Positions 1,363-40,373 of a DNA stretch of 64,000 nucleotides are shown piece after piece. Numbering within the stretch: the stretch's first letter is position 1; each line of letters begins with the position of its first letter. The notes below the pieces were generated by a model that worked only from the letters and a program-made list of their open reading frames with translations, ran no database searches and was not told the DNA's origin. A program made the position numbers and the translations under genes. Source of the DNA: Eledone cirrhosa (taxonomy: Eukaryota); the NCBI GenBank assembly GCA_964016885.1, contig OZ024742.1, positions 76,880,001 through 76,944,000 on the forward strand. Direction: 5' to 3'.

Positions 1363-4300
1363 TGTTCTTTGAGTCTCAGTCATTGATGTTATTTAACTGG
1401 AAAGTTTGTTGAAATGAATATCAAGCTGCTACCTGCAGCCTCAGATATTCAGGACGTATCGGAGGGTTCTTGCTGTTTCCAGAAAGCATGCCTTTTGAAG
1501 TGTTCCAAAAAGCGGGGCTGGACTAATCTTCTTTAACCATCCCTGGAAACTCCTTGAGATAGTACCTAGTGTGCCTATGACAATAGGGACCACTTTGACT
1601 TCATGGCTATACCAAATCCTTTTTACCTCCCACTTTAAGTCCTGATATCGGTTAATTTTCTCCCTCTCCTTCTCTTGCACTCTCGTGTCGAATGGGCAGG
1701 CCACATCCACAATCAGGCACGATCTTTTTTCTTTGTCCAAAACCACCAGATCAGGTCTATTGTATTCCAGTTTCTTGTCCCTCTGTATCCTAAAATCCCA
1801 CAGCACCTTCACCTGATCGTTTTCTATCACCGACTCTGGCTTATGCTCATACCACTTCTCAGAATGTGGTAAATTGTTTACTTTGCATAGGTGCCAGTGG
1901 ATCACCCTGCCCATCATGTCTCCAGCATTTATAGTGAGTCTGGGCAATCGGATAAAATGTGAGCCACAGTCACTTCGCTCCATAGATCCTACACCATGGG
2001 CTAGCCTCCTCCTTGTAAATATGGCTTTACAGTCACTTGGTTTTGAGAGCCTGCTCCTGCGCAGCCATTAACATTCCTTCTGTAGCCTTTTTAAGGTCTC
2101 CTCTTTTCAACCAGTTCCATGTCTGTGGATCTCTAAATTTAGTTTTCTCAAAGAAGGTACTATGAAGGGATTTTTCCTGAAAGCTGCTCTTTCTCCTTGA
2201 TATTATTTCCTCCTTGGACAACCCCTGGGCTATTGTCCCCTCCTTCAGTACAGTTCTGAGCATTGGCTCCTTACTACCAGTCACGTATTTGTGTAGGTTG
2301 TTTTTCTCCATCTGAACACAGTCCTCTATGCTGATAAGACCTCTTCCAACCTCAGATCTCCTTAGGTAGAGTCTATCGACATCACTCCTCTTGTGGAACA
2401 TGTTGTAGATAGTCAATAGCTTCCTAGTCTTCCTATCAATTTCTTTTTGTTCAGCAACATTCCATTTCAGAACTCCCGCACTGTACCTAATAATAGACAC
2501 AGCTCGGGAATTTACTGCACTTATGACATTCCTACTATTTAGATGTGATTTTAATACGCTCCTTACTCTCCTAATGTACTCAGATCTTATCAATTCCTTC
2601 ATTTTTTGTTCTTTATGTCATCTGCCTCCAGAACACCTAAATATTTGTATCCTTCTTCAGTGTCAATTTTTTTTATCATCTCACCTGTGGTACCTGGATT
2701 CCGTTGCTTCTGCTCAATTTACCCCTCTTCACCACAAGGACTCCACACTTATTAATACCAAATTACATACATATATCATTGCTGAAAATTCGGACAGTAT
2801 CAAAAAGTACATCCAACTCCTTCTCACTCTTCCCAAAGAGTTTAAGATCGTCCATGAAGAAGAGGTGGTTGATGGTAAGCTCTCCTTTTCCCAACTTTTA
2901 TCCTGCTCTCACTTTTCGCAATATAATGGTCAGCGATATCAGGTCAAGGACAAACAGCAGAAGGGACAAACTATCGCCCTGGAAGATACCTCTCTTGATC
3001 TTCACGCCTCCCAGGGATTCTCCACCTAATGTTAACTCTGTTTTCCAGGACTTCATACTTTTGCTCAACAACTGTCTGATGTTATCTGCCACCTTGAAGA
3101 TCTCCAGGCTTTTGATTATCAAAGAATGAGGTACCATGTCGAATGCCTCTTTGTAATCTATCCATCCCATGGCAAGACCAGTGTGTATTTTCTTGCAATT
3201 CCTCATTACCATCTTATCAATAAGTAACTGAATTTTTTGTACCACGGGAATTCTTTCGGCATCCTTTCTGTTCGTTCAGTAGCAAGTTGTTTATGTGGAG
3301 GTTAACCGTTTCCACATTACGGACAGACATGTGATAGGTCTATAGTTGGTAACATCATTACCCTTGATTCGGTCTCTCAATACCAGAACTGTGGTACCTT
3401 TTGTCAACCACTCAGGTACCTCAACCGACACCAAGCAGTCATTGAACATGGTTGTCAGTTCAGGGTGGAGGCATGCTATATTCTTAATCCAATACCCCTG
3501 CACACCGTCTGGGCCTGGTGATTTCCAGCTGGTTAGTTTTTTGGCCTGTCCTTTAAGAGTTTCAACTGTGATACTCAAATCAGTATGTTGATGTGCTTGT
3601 TCACTAATCTCCTTTATATTGTCTCAATCCACACTGCCTGATCATTATGTTCAACATCCTGCTCCCATATTCCTCTCCAGAATGTCTTAGTTTGTTCCGC
3701 CTCAGGGATCAAGTCGTTGCCTCTTTCTCTTCTTTCAAGCTGTCCAAACAACATCTTCTGGTTGTTGCCAAACAGGCGGATCTGTCTATACTGACTGACT
3801 CTGCTCTCATACCGCCTAATCTTTGCACTATTTGCTACAATGCGTTGCTTCAGTTCCTCTATGATCATATTTAGCTTTTTCCCCCTAGTTTTGTACTTTA
3901 TTTCCAATCTATGTTTTGTAATGTCCCATTCAGTAGGGACTCAAGCTTTCCATTGTCTTTTCTCATTTACTTGATTTGACCATTCAGTCGTTTCTTCCAC
4001 CAATGTTCTGATCTTTCTAGTTTGTTGTTTCCTCTCGTTCTTATGCCAAGTAATTTCCTCACTGCATTTGCTTTGAGGATATTGTTGCATTGGTGAAGGT
4101 TCCTCGCCTCAAGGTATGGGATGACTTTGTTTACCTTATCTGTTGTTTCTTTTAACATTTTCCTGTCTACAAATCTTTGGATCATAGGTTTCCCACTATC
4201 ATTGTTCATTTCATCTACCACTAAGTTCAGGATATCAACGAAATCTTGTCTTAGCCCGTCAGCATTCATTTCCTCAATGGCCGTATCTTTGTTCCAGATG

Positions 4301-10029: not shown

Positions 10030-12093
10030 AATGGAAAAATTTGAACAGGAACAGAACAGAGAGGCAGTACAACGAATGTTTATTAATTTAACGCTCTGGA
10101 GAGTGGGGTGGTGGTGGGAACGGCGTTTCGGGCATAAGCCCTTCCTCAGGTGAGAAGTGTGTGGGAACAGAGTTCAAAGGGTGTGTAGGGGAGTGGTCGA
10201 GAGACATATAGCGAAAGGAAACGGTGCGAATGAAATGAAAAATAAAAATAAAGCATGATCAAAATACAAGGAATGAAATAAAATTAAATATAAAAGCATG
10301 ATCAAAATAAACTGAAATTAAAAAGGGGGTAAAACAGATGGTGGAAGGGTGTGGGGTGTGTAGGGGTGGTGGCAGGTGGAGTGGGGAGAGGGAGACGGGG
10401 TGTCCGAGCGGGGAGGGCTGAAGATGGTGTGTGTGTGTAGGTGTACGTGTGTGTGTGTATGTGAAAGTAAGGGTTGGGGGAAGAACGGGGTTGCATGTTC
10501 AGGAAGAGGTGTGTGTGTGGGGGGGGGGTTGTAGGTCGGAGTGTCTGTGCGTGTGTCGATAGAGGGGTGGGGGGAGAGAGGAATCAGGAGGCTGACGGTG
10601 TAAATATGTGGTGGAAAGCACGTGTGTGTGGGTTTTAAGCGTGTTGTGGGTGTAGGTGGCGTGTGGAGAAAAACATTTTTTGGGGTGTGTGTGTGGGTGA
10701 GTTATATAGGTGATCCCATAAGAGGATGGTTGAAAAGTGGGTAAAATCCTATGATGTTTAGTGGATTCCGTGGTGGTCAAGTTCCGCATACGAGTATTCC
10801 ATGAAGAGATGGTCGGAAGAGGAGAGATGTAGGGTGCGCGCGCAACAGGAAGTGGTCAAACAGTGGGAGTGCTGTGTGTCTGTTTGTGCTGGGAGGTGGT
10901 CAGAGGGCATAGCAGCAGTCGGTGGAATGGTAAAGAGGCGAGGATGGGTAGGTGGGAAAGTTGGAGTGAGGAGGGTGTGTGTGTGTATTAGTAGAGGTGT
11001 TAGTGGGATGATTGAGTGTGGAGCGAGGGTGTGGGTGGAGCGGGGAGAGAAGGGTGTGTGTAGTTCTATGGAGGGAGTGTGGTGTACTGGTGTGTGTGTA
11101 GTTTGATGAAGGGGGTGTTAGTGGGTGTTAGTATACGGGAGGTGGGGAAGGGTTGAATGCAGGTGTGAGTGGGGGTTAGTGGTGGTAGGGTGTGTAGAGT
11201 TGGTGGTGTACGAGGGTGTGTGGGTACGTGTGTGTGTGATAAGGAGGGGGAGGAGGAGAAGAAGGGAGGGATGTTAGTATGTTAGTTGGGGAAGGGTGGT
11301 CGGATGAGGGGTGGAGTGGAGGTGTTAGTATTGTTAGTTGTGGGGTGGGCGGTGAAAAGGAGGGGTGCGTTAGTGGTGTTAGTGGGGGATAAGTGTGGGG
11401 AGAGGGGGGCGGTCGAAGGCTAAAGGAATAAGGGTGGGGAGTTCAGGCCGGGTGGAGTGTGGGTCTGTAAGATGAAGATAGTTCTTTGTTCGACTCTAAG
11501 GCGATTGGCGGGTGTTCCGTGGCATTGGAGTAGGCCACAGACTGTGAGATGGCGTGCGGAATGTCCAGGGCCACCAAAGTGGCGGGCGATGGGGGAACTA
11601 CCACCGAGACGAATATCCCGGAGGTGCTCAGTGAATCGGTCCGCCAGGCGACGTCCCGTCTGTCCGACATAAGTCCGTAGACTAGGTTGGAGGAGGTGCA
11701 GCGGAAGGCATGCCGGACAGAGAGAGAGGGGCCGTTGGGACCCTGGAAGGTGGTGGTGTTGGTGATGTGGGGACAGGTGTTGCAGCGGGGCCTAGAACAG
11801 GGAAAGGAACCGGGGGGGAAAACAGAGCGTGGGTTGGGAGGTAGGGAGCTGTGGACGAGGAGGGTGCGGAGTTGCGTGCGCGTTTGAAGGAGAGGAGTGG
11901 TGGGGTTGGGAAGATGTGGTAGGTGGAGGGGTCGGACTGGAGGCGTCGGAAGAGGCGGCGGATGGTGCGGTGGAGGGGTAAGGTGGAGGGTTGGTAGGTG
12001 ATGGGGAAGGGGAGACGGTGGGTGGGTGTGCGGTGGCGTGGGAGGGTGGTGGAGCGGTGGACAGCACGGGCGTGGGTGAGAGCGGTGTGGACG
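10030..12093 (-). mobile_element. 5'-truncated Penelope-like element (GIY-YIG C-terminus, long C-rich 3' UTR, terminal HHR), flanked by (TA)n
   Basis: Minus strand reads PCSRPRCNTCPHI...FRCTSSNLVYG, then after a frameshift YVGQTGRRLADRFTEHLRDIR...PIARHF...PPGLN. (TA)n on both sides. Confidence 0.85.
10117..10153 (-). ncRNA. Minimal hammerhead ribozyme motif in a PLE 3' terminus
   Basis: Minus strand: CTGAGGA-A-GGGC-ttat-GCCC-GAAA-CG-c-CG-TT. Core and stem II are intact; stems I and III are weak. Confidence 0.6.
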
Positions 12094-12439: not shown

Positions 12440-13947
12440 GTGTACAGGCAAAATGTATATAATAAGAACAACGATGAAGTTTACATCTGTTTCTGTCTTT
12501 ATAGTATATCGATCCGACTCAAGTATCGATTGACTCTCCAGACAGGAGATTCAACGAACACGGAGTAAGTGAAACGGTGTTTCCATGTGTCAAGGTCACT
12601 CTGACAGTTTAGGGTAAGCAGCCGCTTACTTATAAAATCAACCTCCGCTCTTCTTAAGTCGACCATATCTCTTAGCTCCGAAAGTATCTTTGTGTGTTAT
12701 GACTCATCAAATAATTTTTTTTCTTTTAAATTACTGAGCCCCGAAGGGTTGCTTTCGTCGAAAAAGTAACAGTATTCAGTCATGAAGTTAGTGCTTTGTT
12801 ATACCGACCGTTAACTGATTAGCCAAGCAAGGAATTGGATTAGCATAGTCTGAAGAAGGGTTACTAAAAGCAAAAGCGCTCACTATCAAGTGAACAATAC
12901 TAACTCAGCAACAAGATTAGTAGAGTATAGTCACGTAAACATTCGCGGTAACTATTCTAACAATAACATTAACACTAATTCCTCTTTAAAATGTTTTGTT
13001 TAGTTTATTGTATTTTACTATAGCCTATGTTGTTCCACTTACCTTCTATAGCTTACTCTTCTTAAATTGCCCTGGACCGCCCGCACTACGGAAAAACTAC
13101 ACAATTCACTTCACATACAAATATGTTGCTTGAGATAAACCAACACATTATATATTGATGTGTTTTAGTGTATAGATGGCTATATATATTTTCGTTTTTT
13201 TTTATGCACATAATTTTACATATATATTCAGTTAATTATATATATATAGACGAGTGTTCACTCTTTTATATGTGTATTTACTTATATGTACTTCAATCAA
13301 TACTTATTTTTTTAATAATTTTACAATTTATCGCAAATAAGCTACAAAACAGAGAGGATTCACAATTTAAACTGCTACCACATCTGTTGGTCAACACTAG
13401 CAGAGAGGCTGACATTTTAGGCTGATAGATTGCACTATCAGACTAAAATGTCTTTAGTCAGAAAATATCGCGAAAACTCCTATTTCTAATTATATATATA
13501 TACACACACAGAGGGTGTCTCCCCAAAATGTCTACACATATTTATTAAAATGCTGTTGAAGTGTGTACGCGATGTTATGGTACAGCCTGTATATGCGTAT
13601 ATATAAATATATATATAGTAATAATAATAAATTTGAAGACTAAAATTCAAAGAGGGCTCGATAAGGATAAATATATATCAAATATATAAGAACAGTAGAG
13701 CAAATATTTATTAAAATAACAGATTAAAGTTTAAGCAAAGAATCGCTGCTTTAATCTGTTATTTTAATAAATATATATATATATATTAGAATTGTAGCTC
13801 TGAAATAGCAATATATATATGGATGTAAATATAATGTATTTTGCAATACACTTTATGCTTAATTAAAAGCATTTTGAAGACCGTAAGCTATTGTTTTAAA
13901 GTAGTGACAAATTCACTCACTTCGATCTCAGCAAACAGGAGGAGATA

Positions 13948-13991
13948 AGCCGACATGACATGTTTCGCTTTTGTTGAAGCTTATCAAGGCC
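13948..13991 (-). ncRNA. Type I hammerhead ribozyme, U3-A8 core variant
   Basis: Minus strand: ggcc-TTGATAA-GCTT-caacaa-AAGC-GAAA-CAT-gtc-ATG-TC-ggct. Confidence 0.75.
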
Positions 13992-14265
13992 AACTACCCC
14001 GCCCGTCTGCTGAGATCAATGATGTTATATTCTTATAGAAATCTACTAAATAATCAGGAGCTGATTATGCAGAGCGGTTGTTGGTCAGGCAGAAATTAAA
14101 ATACATTATATTTACATCCATATATATATTGCTATTTCAGAGCTACAATTCTAATTTTTAATTTCTGCCTGACCAACAACCGCTCTGCATAATCAGCTCC
14201 TGATTATTTACTAGATTTCTATAAGAATATAACATCATTGATCTCAGCAGACGGGCGGGGTAGTT

Positions 14266-14309
14266 GGCCTTGATAAGCTTCAACAAAAGCGAAACATGTC
14301 ATGTCGGCT
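14266..14309 (+). ncRNA. Type I hammerhead ribozyme, U3-A8 core variant
   Basis: ggcc-TTGATAA-GCTT-caacaa-AAGC-GAAA-CAT-gtc-ATG-TC-ggct. All three stems can form; predicted cleavage after GUC. Confidence 0.75.
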
Positions 14310-14454
14310 TATCTCCTCCTGTCTGCTGAGATCGAAGTGAGTGAATTTGTCACTACTTTAAAACAATAGCTTACGGTCTTCAAAATGCTTTTAATTAAGC
14401 ATAAATTGTATTGCAAAATACATTATATTTACATCCATATATATATATATATAT

Positions 14455-17400
14455 CGAGATCGCTTAATCTCCTTCCATCCTAACTAATGCCAAAACGAGG
14501 GTACTCATTGTCTTCTTCATGATGAAATCGATGACAATTAGGAAAAAGAAAGGCGAAAGGATGCAGCCTTGTTGAACACCCGTCAAGATGTCAAATATTT
14601 CCTTGTTTCCGTCCTTTGTCCTAACGCAGCACCTGGAATGTCGGTACAGCGACCTGAAGATGTTAATATATTTCTCTGAGACACCGTAGAGTCTTACAAT
14701 CTTCCACAATGACTCCAGATGAACACTGTCGAAAGCTTTCCTGAAGTCAATGTAGTTAACAACAAGGGACTTGTGGAAATCCCGAAATTGTTCAATGATA
14801 TTTCGCAGAGTGAAGATCTGCTCTGAACAAGACCTTCCACTGCGGAAGCCAGCCTTTTCGTCTCGAAGATGACGATCTACTTCTGCTCTCAGCCGGTTCA
14901 GGATGAGTGTGCAGAATAGCTTCCCTGGCACTGATAGCAATGTGATCCCTCTCCAGTTGTTGCAGTCGCTGACACAGCTCTTCTTCGGTAGTGGTACAAT
15001 CATTCCATTTTCCCAGTCTTCCGGCACCTCCTCTTCTTGCCAAATCACATTGCATAAATGGGTGAGCTGCTCCTCTATTACAACCTTGTCGTGCTTCAGA
15101 AGCTCTGCAGGAATCTCATCCAGCCCTGCCGCTTTGTTATTCTTTTGGCAGCGGATGGTCTTGGCCACCTCAGCTCTTGTGATGTCGTCTAGTCGTACAT
15201 CCAGCCGGTAGCTCGCTCGCTTCCTCCCAATCAAGCTCGAAGACTGTGTTGGGGGATGGCTGATTGAGGACCTCACGAAAGTGTTCGTTCCACCTCTGGG
15301 CCTGCTCTTCACTGGCTGCACGCATCCGACCATCTTTGCTCTTGATTGGCAAACTGCTTCCACTTCGTCCTCCAGTTAGCTCTCTGACGATCCGGTACAG
15401 CGTCTTGGAATCATTTCGATCTGCTGCCACCTGTGCTTCTGCAGCCCGATCTTCTAACCACTGGCGCTTGTCTTTTCGACAGCTCTTCTTTACTTCCTTG
15501 TCAAGACGTCTGTACTCTTTGTCCACTTCCTTCCATTGCTGTCGAGTTTTGGTTTGATCTCTTTTGTTCTTAACATCCTTCCTCTCGTCAATGAGATTAC
15601 ATGAATTACTGCTGATCCACTGTTCCCGATTGGTCCCCCTACTTCCACCAATAACCAAATCAGCACTCGCCCTGACCGTCTGAGCAAACATCTGCCACTG
15701 GTCGTCATGGTTCTGTGCGTGCTGTAGTTCTTGGAACTTATTCCTGATCTCCAGGTAGAATCCCTTGAGGTGCCTTGGTCTTGCAGGCTTGCGATAGCAT
15801 ATGGCCTCATGATCTTATTTGCTTTGTTCTTCTTCAACCTCATGCGGATTTTTCCAACTACAAGATGATGGTCAGATCCGACGTCTGCCCCTCGGTAGGT
15901 GTGAACATCGAAGAGAGAGGAACGCCACCTTGTGCCAATGCAGATATAATCAATCTCATTCCTGGTGTTGCCATCAGGGGAAGTCCATGTCAACTTGTGA
16001 ATCCACCTATGGGTGAACAATGTATTCCCGATGGAGTGGTTGCTGATACTGCTCAGGGACAGCAACCGTTCCCCGTTGTTATTGGTGGAATCAGCTGAAC
16101 CGTGGTGGCCAATGGCTGAATGCATTTCTCTCCTGTCTCCATCTAGCTTGGCATTGAAATCTCCAATCACCAGCCTAATGTCTGACCTGGGTGTTTATTC
16201 TAGGACATCCTGTAGTTGGATAAATAAGGTATCTTTATCTTCATCTGAGACAGTTTAAGTCGGGGTGTAGACTTGCACTACGGTCACCTTGGCTAACCTT
16301 GTGCTCAATCTGGCAGTAATAATTCGTTCACTCACTGGTCTCCATCCCACAAGAGCCAGTGATACATCTCCGGTGAGGATAATACCAACTCCGTGGACAT
16401 GGTGGTCATCATCACCGGAGTAGAGAATAATCATGTCTCCAATGTCGAGTACTACCCTTCCTGTCCACCTCGTCTCCCTGATTCCCATGATGTCAAGGCG
16501 ATATTCTCTCATCTCCTTCAGCACCTGCTCCATCCGCCCGTCCCTAAAGAGGGTGCGTACATTCCAGGTGCCTACTCTTGTGTTTGATTTTGGCGTTGAA
16601 GATAGGACTTATTCGCGGTCGGGCCTCCTTTCTGATTTGACCCGGCCCCATCATAGGTGCATCCAGGGATGACGTGTCTTCTCTTTTCCGTCGCTCGGTA
16701 TCAAAATGTTTTTTTCTCGTCGTTTTTGTAGCAGTGAAAAGTCTTTACGGGGATAGGGCATCTAACCCCACGCCCCAACCCTCCTCATTTCTCAACAGGG
16801 CATGGGACCGGCTAAGGCGGACTTTGCCGATGACATCGCAGTGATAGGCCATTCCCGAGAAGACCTGCATAGAGATGACAAACGTTCTAAATTACAATGC
16901 AGAGAAAGTTGGTCTGCACATCAGTTGTGAAAAAACCAAGACCATGTCGACAGGTCACCCTCCAAATCCTCCCATCATGGTTGGTCAGCATAACATTGAA
17001 TGTGTAAACAACTTCCAATATATTGGCAGCAACATCTCTGACGATGGGGATGCTGAGGTGGATGTGCGCACATGGCTGGGAAAATCAGCGGCGGTCTTCC
17101 ACCAACTCCGTCCGGTATGGTCAAGGTGTTCCATCGGCAACGTCGTCAAATTCCGTCTTTACATGTCCATTGTAGTACCAACAGTGATAAATGCCTGTGA
17201 GACATGGAAGAGTACGGAAAGTGTATGTAACAAGCTTGATGTATTCCACCGTCTTTGCATTCGGACCATATTGAAAATTTCATGGAGAGACCAAGTTAGC
17301 AACGAGGAAGTGGTTTGGAGGTTAGGATTGGAGAGGTTAAGGGACATTGTCCGGAAAAGGAGACGGCGGTTCGCGGACAACTCCTTCGTTTGCCGGCAGA

Positions 17401-17618
17401 TGGATCTGCTCATATTGCCATGGATTGGGTACCAGAAGGTGGCAGGAGAGAACGAGGAAGACCACGAAAAACATGGCGGAGCACATTCAGGGAGGAGCTG
17501 CGGGTGATGGGAATTACCTGGAGAGGTGCTAGAATGACCGCCAGTGACAGGATCAAGTGGAGGAAGCTCGTTGCCCAATGTTCCACAAGGGACTGGAGGA
17601 ACTAAGACTAAGTCTAAG
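14455..17618. mobile_element. Full-length RTE LINE with inverted 5' portion (5' UTR, APE endonuclease and RT N-half on minus 14455-16819; RT C-half and tail on plus 16820-17618)
   Basis: Minus: MGIRETRW, IGDFNAK, NEIDYI, GSDHHLV, NWRGITLLS, IDFRKAFDSV, GVQQGCILSP. Plus: DFADDIA, FQYIGS, ACETW, GRRERGRPRKTW, and a short CTAAG-type repeat tail. (TA)n on both sides. Confidence 0.9.
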
Positions 17619-17634
17619 ATATATATATATATAT

Positions 17635-20289
17635 AAAATTATCAATCTGACTAGTGCGAAACCAACAGCCAACCTTATCAACTTACTCTCCAAAGGTCTT
17701 AAATTCACGCCGACCCTACTACGTCCTAACTACTATGAAATGAAGAAAGACATCACAGACTTCTGTAGAAAGTTACGACTCAGTGAAGAACTATTCCACC
17801 AGTACAATGAGGATGAATCATTAGCCAGAAATAGAAGCAATTACACCCCATCAAAAGGTAGTAATAAAATCCTGGACGAATTCTGTGAACACATCACAAA
17901 CTTCCCTTACCAACACTTGCATAGACAAAAACACAAGCCAAACCTCAACAAGAAAGAATGGGAAGAATTAAATAGATTAAAAACCGACAGAACCATTACA
18001 ATTAAAGAGGCTGATAAAGGGGATGCAGTAATCATAATGGAGACAGAATTCTATATCAACTTAGCGCTCTCCACTTTGGAAAACAAAACATACTACGAAA
18101 AGGCTGAACACTACAATCAACAGAAAATTATGAGAAACCTAAAAACTCTGATCAACCAATACAAAGAAGGACTCACTAACAAGGAATTCAGCTTCATCAC
18201 AGACTTCACAAGTAAATCCAGCCTTTTCTACGGTATCCCTAAAGTACATAAAAGCGAATTAATAAGTAAGGCATGCAAGAAAGCCACAGACATAGTCATC
18301 AATGTCCCTCACCCAATGATCTCAAATTAAGACCTATAATAGCAGGCCTCGCTTACGAAACCCATCGCCTTAGCAACTTCATTGATACCCTGCTTAAGCC
18401 TTTTCTCAAACACATCAAAAGCTATATAAGGGATGACCTAGATACTCAATCACCTCCCTAATATGCCCCTTACTAAACAAACCCTACTATTGACGTTCGA
18501 TGTAGTCAACCTATACTCCAACATCCCCCACAACCTAGGGATAGAAGCTATCCAATTCTGGCTGGATAATTACCACAATAAACTCCCACAACGCATCAAA
18601 AAAGAATTCGTGATAGAAGGACTCAAATTTATCTTGGAGAACAATTACTTCGTTTTCAATAACAAACCCTACAGGCAGAAATCTGGGACCGCTATGGGAA
18701 CGAAAAGAGCCCCCACTTATGCCAAGCTAGTCATGGGATACCTGGAAATCACCCTCTACACTAAAGTACTAAACAAATTTGGAAACACTCTCCACTTACA
18801 CATAGAAAGGAACTGGAAGCGATATCTAGATGACAGCTTCATCCTTCGGCACGAAAACATCGAGAAGCTTAAAGAATTTCACACCCTTATAAATGGGCTC
18901 AACACGAATATTAACTTCACGATGAAATACAGCCATCAACAACTCCCCTCCTCGACATCCTCATTAAGATTCATAACAAAAAAAAATAGAAACAGACATA
19001 TACTACAAGCCCACAGACTCCAAGCAATATATTCCTTTCAACTCTTGCCACCCTAGACACGTTAAAATTAATATTCCCTACAACTTAGCAAAGAGAATCT
19101 GTACTATAGTCTCCAATAAAAACACCTGTTACTTACGGCTACAAGAACTAAAGGACACACTCATAGGCAGGGACTACCCTGCATCACTAATTGACAATGG
19201 AATCCAACATGCCCTAAAACTCAGTACCCAGGACCTTAGACACCCTAAAGTAAATCAACCAAAACTAAAAGCTATTCCATACATCTCCACACACAACCCC
19301 CTCAGCAATGAGGCCTTTGACACCATCCTCCAGAACATCCCTTTGTTAAAAAAGGACCATAGAATGAACCAAATCCTACGAACATACGATCATAAAGAGC
19401 AAAAGACAATCTAAGTCAATGAAAAACATCCTAACACATGCCAAAGTACGGCCAACCACAACAACGAAACCCACAGTAGAAAAATGCGATAGACCCAACT
19501 GTGGCATATGCATCAACCTAATAGAGGGTTCGGAATTCTATTATAAAGAAGGACAACGTTATATAGTAAAACACAATTTAACATTCGCATCAGAAAATCT
19601 AATATATGTATTAACTTGCTCAGGTTGTCGAGGACAATACATAGTCCAGATCAAAAACAGCCTCCGCCAACGCATGACTGTCCATAGATCCCAAATTAAA
19701 ATACGGGAATACAGGAAAATACTAGTGAGTGAACACATTGATACCTGTGCCGCCCAACTTCAGAATCTTTCCTCTCTACAAATTTAAAGATAATGCCACC
19801 CACACCCTGCGCATCAGCAAGGAATCTCACTTTATTAACAAATACGGACCCCGTCTAAACACTTCTCCCTAAGACGAACCCACAACATACACACGTCAAC
19901 ATAGATACCTACATTAGCATACATCCTACATACATATCTATCCACATATAAACACAATGACATACGTAAACACACATGTTCTATGGTGCAACACAAATAT
20001 ACACAAATATGTCTATAGATATAAACGTGCCGACACACACACATACATATACGCACACATGCATTGCACACTGATGGGCACATACATATTTGTACACAAA
20101 TATTCCAATACGGCAAGGCCTAATGGATTCCCATTGCAGTACGTACAATCTGGACACTCTTATGCCAATACTATATATCATTTCACACCTTTTATTATTA
20201 AGGTTTTTGATGTTCTATTGAGAGAATCGTTTTTACTGAAAATATCGAATAATGTACACTATTTTTACCAGTATCACAAAAATACTGGT

Positions 20290-20345
<56 letters not shown>

Positions 20346-20351
20346 CCACAT

Positions 20352-20390
<39 letters not shown>

Positions 20391-20566
20391 CACACACACA
20401 TACACACGCGTACATTAACATACAAAGAGACATACACACACACACAAACACACACACTTCTCCGTATAAGACAAGGGCTGAAAAATATCTTTTAACATGT
20501 TAAAATATCCCCCACACACGTACAGACAATTCCTACTGACCGATCCCTCTACCACGAATTACTCTG

Positions 20567-22988: not shown

Positions 22989-23545
22989 TAAACGGAATAG
23001 AAAATGCTGACAAATTGTTCACAGTTGAAAAATGGTTTAATTAGGAATAAAAGAGTATTAGTGATTGTATGGGTTAGTATTCAGTTGTGGTTTTAAGTTT
23101 TTAAGTTTTTACCGGTTGCGCATTTCTAAATGCTTTTCAAAAATAATTTTGAGATAGAGTGTCCGTGTTGTTTGCTCTGATCCGATTAGTTTTGGGAATT
23201 CTACCTGTTTTTATGTTAAAAAGTGGCTCCAGCGTTAATTTGGTGTTGCAAAAATTCTTGTGGTCAAAACAATTTTGATTGGTCGGTAGAGGTCATGTGA
23301 ATGTAAAAAATTGATTTTGCGCCAATACTGTTTTTATGTTAAAAAAGTGGCTCCAGCTCTACTTGGTGTTTGCAAAAATTCTTGTGGTCAAAACAATTTT
23401 GATTGGTCGGTAGAGGTCATGTGAATAAAAAATTGGTTTTGCGCCAAGATTGAGAAATGACTCTTTCACAACAAATATGTGTGTGTGTGTGTGTGTGTGT
23501 ATAAGTCTCTTTGTATGTTAATGTACGCGTGTGTATGTGTGTGTT

Positions 23546-39268: not shown

Positions 39269-40302
39269 AGAAGCAAAAAATTGCTTATTGTAATCCAGTT
39301 ATTGGTTAAGAAAGCCAGTTTCATGGATGGTTTAAACGTACGGTTAGGGGTAACTCCACAAGTTTGTAAGAATTCACAAGATTAATGAAAACTTAGCATA
39401 CATCAACTGTAACTCAAACCACCCACTATGCATAATTAAATCCATTCCACGCAGCATATCCCTTAGGATCTCCCGCCTCTCATCTAACCGGCAAATCTTC
39501 GAAGAACATGCAGAATACTACAATACCGCATTAGACAAGGCAGGCCACTTAGATAGAGTAGAATATATAGATGAGAGCCTCTGTGAAGCACACACGAACA
39601 CGCATAACACAAACTCCAGAAACACACGCATACACACATTTACGCATAGAACCGCAAAGTATACGGCAAATAGAAGTACAACATCGAAATCAAACAAGTC
39701 ACGCAGTAGAAAATATATTTGGTATAACCCCATATTTAACACCTCTATTAGTACTAACCTACCCTCTACTTTCTTTAGAATAATAAATAGGCACTTTCCA
39801 GATTCACATAGATACAGCAAAATCCTTAACACTAAATCTATTAGACTATCCTACTCCACGGCACCAAATATAGAAGCACACATTAAGATGCTTAACGCTA
39901 AAAAGATACATAACAACACCAGTTAAAAACATTTAGAAGACCATACGGTATTATTTTTAAAGTAGTGACTATATCACTTACTTATTTTCGGCGAAAGAGG
40001 GAGAGTGGTTGACAGTCTGTTTCACGCAGGTTGGCGTTCATCAGAACCACTCACACTCTATCGCTATTTCAGAGCACCAATCCCAATTCCTAATTTTTGC
40101 TGGTCCGGCTACCGCTCTGTATAATCAGCTCCTGATCGTTATTGGAATTCTATAAGAATCCAGCAACTATAGTTTTCGGAGGCAGCAGAGGAGTGCGTGG
40201 TTCTGATGAATGCCATGGTCAGTACTTTAAAAGTGATAGCGTATGGTCTTCTAAATTTATTTAATTAAACATACAGTATATTGCTAAATATACTATACAT
40301 AC

Positions 40303-40305
<3 letters not shown>
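39265..40305 (+). mobile_element. Penelope-like element fragment from a second lineage (WFNPP-type RT C-terminus) followed by inverted and forward terminal segments
   Basis: Manual translation: AYINCNSNHPLCIIKSIPRSISLRISRLSSNRQIFEEHAEYYNTALDKAG...WYNP...HFPDSHRYSKILNTKSIRLSYSTAPNIEAHI. The terminus is homologous to 13786-14440. Flanked by (TA)n. Confidence 0.78.
40003..40052 (-). ncRNA. Canonical type I hammerhead ribozyme
   Basis: Minus strand: GAGTGGTT-CTGATGA-ACGC-caacct-GCGT-GAAA-CAG-a-CTG-TC-AACCACTC. 8-bp stem I, 4-bp stem II, GUC site. Confidence 0.88.

Positions 40306-40373
<68 letters not shown>

Follow-up and report, generated by a model that had tools for sequence, protein, structure and literature searches.

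Locus

The window analysed here (64,000 nt of the Eledone cirrhosa assembly GCA_964016885.1, contig OZ024742.1, positions 76,880,001 to 76,944,000, forward strand) contains a near-perfect palindrome at 13786-14436, bounded on both sides by (TA)n tracts and free of open reading frames of at least 100 amino acids over that span. Its arms are 98% complementary across 300 nt (13802-14101 versus 14156-14455) and differ at 3 of 291 aligned bases; a second complementary pair (13780-13842 and 14098-14160) spans the junction. An initial annotation of the sequence had described a hammerhead-bearing repeat unit of about 310 bp in both arms. The unit stands, with a corrected period of 317 bp (306 + 11; unit numbering starts at window position 14131). 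The head-to-tail junction reported on both strands, which contains (AT)5T, was recovered at 14114-14143 on the plus strand and at 13798-13826 on the minus strand. Coordinates are collected in Table 1.

Table 1. Features of the two-armed insertion, in window positions
Feature	Position	Strand	Remarks
Left (TA)n target tract	13771..13785	.	
Left arm	13786..14101	-	316 nt of the 317-bp unit: unit positions 26-317, then 1-24
Left arm 3' end	site B	-	continues into (TA)n
35-nt "tail" between site A and site B	13786..13820	-	left arm only; cf. PMC8557442, Fig. 2 legend
Second hammerhead motif copy (predicted)	13922..14019	-	predicted cut after 13952
Inversion junction	14098..14101	.	5' ends of both arms meet; 4-nt microhomology
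Right arm	14098..14436	+	339 nt: unit positions 285-317, then 1-306
Internal (AT)5T head-to-tail junction	14120..14130	+	site A (proposed priming register 1) immediately before
Type I hammerhead motif, long helix I (predicted)	14238..14335	+	predicted cut after C14305
Hammerhead core, U3-A8 variant	14270-14276	+	
Hammerhead GAAA	14291-14294	+	
Hammerhead stem III, self-complementary	14294-14304	+	
Hammerhead GUC triplet	14303-14305	+	
Right arm 3' end	site A	+	continues into (TA)n
Right (TA)n target tract	14437..14454	.	

Hammerhead motif

Each arm carries one hammerhead-like motif, as annotated, with Rfam HH9 matches at 14251-14328 (+; E 9e-5) and 13929-14006 (-; E 5e-5) that score 30-31 bits, under the gathering score of 52. 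The GUC site that had been placed near 14305 coincides with the triplet of Table 1. Helix I is predicted at about 30 bp and stem II at 4 bp, and the 105-nt hammerhead region folds at z = -7.6 (vs 200 shuffles). Stem III alone does not fold, and 10 of its 11 bases pair with a second copy (-11.9 kcal/mol), a pattern suggestive of a hammerhead in dimer form. For the core, minimum-energy prediction gives an alternative pairing that is 2.4 kcal/mol lower than the hammerhead (-10.8 vs -8.4 kcal/mol).

The core is unchanged in 234 of 240 complete unit copies. Its letters are invariant over eight related families of this genome, in seven of which core positions 3 and 8 are Watson-Crick partners (C-G in four, U-A in three); the stem-count script permitted no bulges and misread the O1 row, and its results were used for the 3-8 pair and stem III only. 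U3-A8 is a known covariant of Schistosoma PLE hammerheads, according to the parts of Cervera and de la Pena 2014 (PMC4209133) used here. The hammerheads of the Schistosoma PLE Cercyon and the dimeric minimal hammerheads described there share with the 317-bp unit this covariant core and a self-complementary helix III favouring the dimer, whereas the roughly 30-bp helix I and the protein-free tandem unit set the 317-bp unit apart.

Directly after helix I, at 14335-14340, stands a hexamer that occupies the same position in the young 317-bp family and in the O1, L045 and window-40k families, and that was also noted at locus L230. It resembles a 5' splice site. Introns are frequent in PLE pLTRs.

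Genomic family

A search of the same genome with the unit returned 969 candidates, 40 of which were scored and gave 184 matches, nearly all 95-100% identical and many standing in 317-bp tandems. Exact patterns for the two outer ends of the arms hit the genome 63 and 85 times, all within analysed DNA. Merging gave 101 regions with 103 insertion clusters, distributed over about 100 unlinked sites with distinct flanks on many contigs. The copies are about 99% identical (98-99%) and dispersed as well as tandem, with arrays of 10-13 units as the longest. Singleton divergence, at 0.23% per site, marks the family as very young. The youth claimed in the initial annotation thus holds, and the genome search that it had proposed, for tandem arrays and permuted ends, yielded both the 103 clusters and the arrays of up to 13 units.

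The genome also has 2141 candidates for an older subfamily of 320 bp, and further, more distant relatives exist. The window itself holds an older retrozyme relative at 39921-40324, about 80% identical, two-armed and with a canonical C3-G8 core. New retrozymes insert into TA tracts that earlier retrozymes or PLEs have left behind, and insertions pile up (loci L019, 666-2543; L018, 1461-3229; L045, 1988-4942; L189; and L264, 2436-2885). Among the contigs of four public runs, one of 347 nt (317 + 30) closes on itself, which fits a DNA tandem and an RNA circle alike.

Outer ends and proposed insertion mechanism

The outer (3') arm ends are fixed family-wide at two sites, A and B, 35 nt apart. Site A immediately precedes the internal (AT)5 (94/96 A ends); at site B, 68 of 84 ends fall on one base and the remainder within positions 21-33. 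Typed ends continue into TA in 162 of 180 cases, in agreement with the (TA)n insertion site first annotated. Both ends were typed in 80 of the 103 clusters, the other 23 being single-armed, having one end untyped or lying beside a gap. These 80 comprise 78 A+B insertions, one A+A and one B+B, whereas independent ends would give 40 A+B pairs (binomial p 3e-21); in the subset found from end patterns alone, 70 of 72 insertions are A+B. The flanks of the lone B+B case mirror one another as inverted copies, and this case may have arisen by later duplication or as an artefact of the assembly. The same pairing recurs in older relatives, the 30 loci of the older family being typed at both ends in part. 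Inner arm ends are scattered, most junctions overlap by 0-4 nt, and the arms are arranged tail-out, inverted, in (TA)n. The arms had been annotated as differently permuted copies of one monomer: the inner ends do vary, but the outer 3' ends are not freely permuted.

Twin priming of the L1 kind, with one arm taking up again at the point where the other was primed, was rejected as a general rule, since ends within 15 nt of the other site occur in 14/75 B arms and 3/75 A arms against 7.3 expected if uniform.

The layout matches that of EN+ PLEs, whose signature in the relevant parts of Craig et al. 2021 (PMC8557442) combines (TA)n targets with a copy that is inverted and 5'-truncated and a tail of 30-40 bp, often present at just one end. 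Likewise, EN+ PLEs have two internal RT start sites downstream of the hammerhead. In the sections used of Frangieh et al. 2024 (PMC11167929), the Anolis PLE protein (Poseidon PAc) cuts and extends both strands in vitro and starts reverse transcription at two internal sites bounding the tail, with a dimer predicted and a start site that does not differ between strands. The 317-bp family departs from EN+ PLEs in having no open reading frame, the entire element being a repeated pLTR-like unit, and its near-strict pairing of one A with one B end, together with the allele concordance of the arms described below, exceeds both "often at one end" (PMC8557442) and "no strand difference" (PMC11167929), as these sources word it in the parts used. 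In the mainly open-access literature covered, with older Penelope structure papers outside it, we found no quantification of this pairing or of single-template concordance for retrozymes. How PLEs make tandem and inverted copies is described as undefined in the portion of PMC8557442 consulted.

That a PLE mobilises the family, as the initial annotation had proposed, is supported by this two-end "tail" signature and is in our judgement very likely. With slightly less assurance, we regard the locus as the product of a single insertion: a non-coding 317-bp tandem repeat, young and with a predicted hammerhead, which belongs among the animal non-LTR retrozymes and was likely copied in trans by a PLE. 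Its annotation as an inserted inverted dimer was right as to the inverted form; a better reading of the palindrome is a pair of cDNAs, with priming from either strand of a single cut.

Under this model, the GIY-YIG nuclease of a PLE would cut both strands of a (TA)n tract, and at internal sites A and B two RT active sites, probably of one dimer on one RNA, would prime the two free 3' ends. Each cDNA would then run backwards through the unit, and the two would be joined 5'-to-5' via 0-4 nt of microhomology. Since priming is internal, whatever lies downstream of B is lost, and the whole unit would be regenerated only from a tandem or circular RNA. The main template that we favour would be a monomer circle, cut by the ribozyme and ligated by the host, with roughly one insertion in ten made from cut linear monomers.

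Template of the two arms

The arms share subfamily alleles. Position 110 is mixed between arms in 0/45 insertions (18.4 expected for two random templates) and position 118 in 1/45 (11 expected), so both arms come from one RNA, or at least from one source locus. The predicted ribozyme cut site is crossed by 117 of 160 arms; the usual template was therefore not a cut monomer, and a circle or an uncut multimer is left. Within the PLE model, we rate the ribozyme-cut, host-ligated monomer circle as the rather more probable main template; in the parts of PMC7229834 used, retrozyme circles as transposition template are put forward as a hypothesis. Tentatively, and as a possibility short of even, we propose the full sequence of events, in which a PLE dimer grips one 317-nt ribozyme-made circle, its RT subunits prime both strands of a single (TA)n cut 35 nt apart and roll round the circle, and a minority of cut linear monomers leave a run-off footprint at the cut site. 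If true, this would account at a stroke for the PLE tail, for the inverted pLTR and for how retrozyme arrays arise, and would amount to in vivo evidence of ribozyme cutting.

A less probable account, which we consider doubtful, keeps the same two-ended PLE insertion and draws the template from a few long, homogeneous master arrays as an uncut linear multimer, with the ribozyme incidental and no circle. Arrays of suitable length occur (10-13 units). Uncleaved RNA was the dominant in vitro substrate of the Anolis protein in the data consulted from PMC11167929, and 8/9 Xenopus retrozyme dimers were without cleavage in vitro in the corresponding part of bioRxiv 10.64898/2026.07.22.740005. The uniformity of the arrays bears on this account. 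At 19 multi-copy loci all units carry the position-110 allele, and no locus has it in just part of its units; of five locus-private variants (positions 59, 78, 91, 262 and 276), each fixed over 3-5 units, four are fixed in both arms; and a position-263 variant occupies 19/19 units at two loci. Such homogeneity is what re-reading one monomer predicts, and as sequence evidence it would support the circle indirectly, whereas under the linear account each locus-private variant fixed in all units and both arms would need a separate homogenised master. Permutation of a single copy does not by itself demonstrate a circle. About eight further variants occur in part of an array's units, and in one array a block of three units is duplicated; local homogenisation therefore occurs and could mimic re-reading. 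These partial variants are compatible with a linear multimer, as is the correlation of arm lengths (rho 0.40), which a linear multimer of limited length would likewise give. A heterogeneous linear multimer would be expected to share partial variants in register between arms, and this was seen in 1/3 cases, at a CpG, with three cases only.

Two further observations count against an uncut template with an incidental ribozyme: the conserved core, covarying over the eight families, and a first-pass truncation step at the cut site. First-pass truncations are 4.2-fold more frequent within the 50 nt leading up to the cut site than past it (25/5652 vs 5/4798, p 0.0014), compared with 1.1-fold in later passes (interaction borderline, p 0.052); the strong helix I could itself stall RT near the cut site. 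Neither arm crosses the cut site in 12/75 insertions, where about 5 are expected. Stops at exactly position 176 number 3 in 204 arrivals (0.45 expected, p 0.011), and a sharp pile-up at the cut site is absent from a 4-nt window over all passes (3 vs 1.9). We see in this a weak, partly post hoc hint that about a tenth of the insertions used a ribozyme-cut linear monomer.

PLEs of this genome and further alternatives

The genome contains an abundant young autonomous PLE (RVT_1 + GIY-YIG, 4.7-kb tandem unit) with the same two-end layout, at unit positions 3432 and 3473 with a 41-nt tail, in TA; both ends are present in loci L142 and L146 and one end in L143, L144 and L145. Its pLTR aligns with the 317-bp unit no better than shuffles do (48 vs 47.7 +/- 7.2), and an Rfam hammerhead search of five of its loci gave none, a minimal motif being read by eye. 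A profile of the family, run over 78 PLE-bearing loci, matched only in independent neighbouring insertions; those near PLE open reading frames (L264 and L268) are separate insertions in TA tracts. No pLTR homologous to the unit was found in the abundant PLE, in a second PLE family of the window, in 30 Pfam GIY-YIG loci (from more than 10,000 GIY-YIG candidates in the genome, 150 were scored and these 30 examined) or in the neighbours of the analysed loci.

Another proposal holds that the copies are 5'-truncated pLTR ends of a yet-unfound autonomous PLE and form no independent non-autonomous family. The unit does have pLTR-like geometry (a ribozyme, a stretch of about 130 nt, site A, a further 35-41 nt and then site B), and PLE insertions are mostly truncated and partly tandem in the account consulted in PMC8557442. 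Truncation of an ORF-bearing element, however, cannot yield perfect 317-bp head-to-tail arrays of up to 13 units. PLE coding sequence adjoins 0/103 young clusters (one PLE protein query; nearest match 531 nt off) and 0/74 loci of older relatives (four queries; two controls positive), so that this proposal is largely refuted and very improbable. The same count bears out the non-autonomous status given in the initial annotation, which had set it against attachment of all other copies to coding PLEs. Movement as DNA (a MITE-like foldback or satellite amplification), or palindromes made by the assembly, could draw on the inverted structure and on the one B+B case with mutually inverted flanks, but is hardly credible given that the arms are asymmetric (their outer ends differ and are fixed, while the inner ends are scattered and meet at microhomology), that the insertions occupy about 100 unlinked sites, each differently flanked, and that a single low-depth contig of an independent public run joins opposite unit strands.

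Comparison with known systems

Judged by its sequence, the element shows every testable feature of the animal non-LTR retrozymes as set out by Cervera and de la Pena 2020 (PMC7229834), and is best placed as a novel family of a known class. In the parts of PMC7229834 and bioRxiv 10.64898/2026.07.22.740005 used here, these retrozymes resemble the 317-bp family in having a non-coding tandem unit of 170-400 nt with low GC, one type I hammerhead per unit, dispersed monomers and multimers, and co-existing PLEs that are proposed as helpers; Li, Clavereau and Pollet 2026 (the bioRxiv preprint) argue that animal retrozymes are non-autonomous PLE derivatives. Unlike the descriptions in those parts, the present data map insertion scars and include inverted two-armed (TA)n copies with one A and one B end. 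Circular RNA and cleavage have been shown for coral, mussel and axolotl retrozymes in the sources as used, whereas the 317-bp family is known here from sequence alone. For Xenopus retrozymes, pLTR homology to a helper is reported in the material consulted; for the 317-bp family, it was not found in the 78 PLE-bearing loci. [quoted passage not shown]

Since the class is known and PLEs have already been proposed as helpers, the element itself is no surprise to a specialist. Its value lies in a clean data set, a 317-nt substrate with about 100 fresh insertions, and in predictions for in vitro TPRT: each event should yield an A end and a B end, a single RNA should serve for both arms, and the cut site should be read through.

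Neighbouring elements

A decayed copy of the abundant RT + GIY-YIG PLE occupies 17636-20400, and an inverted pair of 124-bp tandem repeats at 23205-23447 and 24476-24721 matches the pLTR of that PLE. Many genomic copies of it have a 784-aa frame overlapped by an upstream 455-aa frame without a Pfam match. PLEs normally have a single ORF, and this two-frame layout is unusual. The GIY-YIG end of the second PLE family lies at 11420-11791 and has 8753 candidates in the genome. Elsewhere in the genome, the minimal hammerheads of Neptune-like PLEs are also U3-A8 (L264, 2208-2245; L141, 5139-5176), and one Neptune-like PLE hammerhead reads GCAA in place of the usual GAAA.

A different element is represented at 13603-13774 by a short inverted remnant that shows 97% identity to ends in locus L178; the right end of this remnant shares the TA tract that the retrozyme entered. 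In L178 the same ends lead into an ORF start, which we presume from its appearance to be PLE-like. On the other side, a LINE with a 5' inversion spans 14454-17635 (14454 to about 16600 on the minus strand, 16819-17635 on the plus strand); other copies are continuous across the inversion point, and both ends of the LINE adjoin TA tracts.
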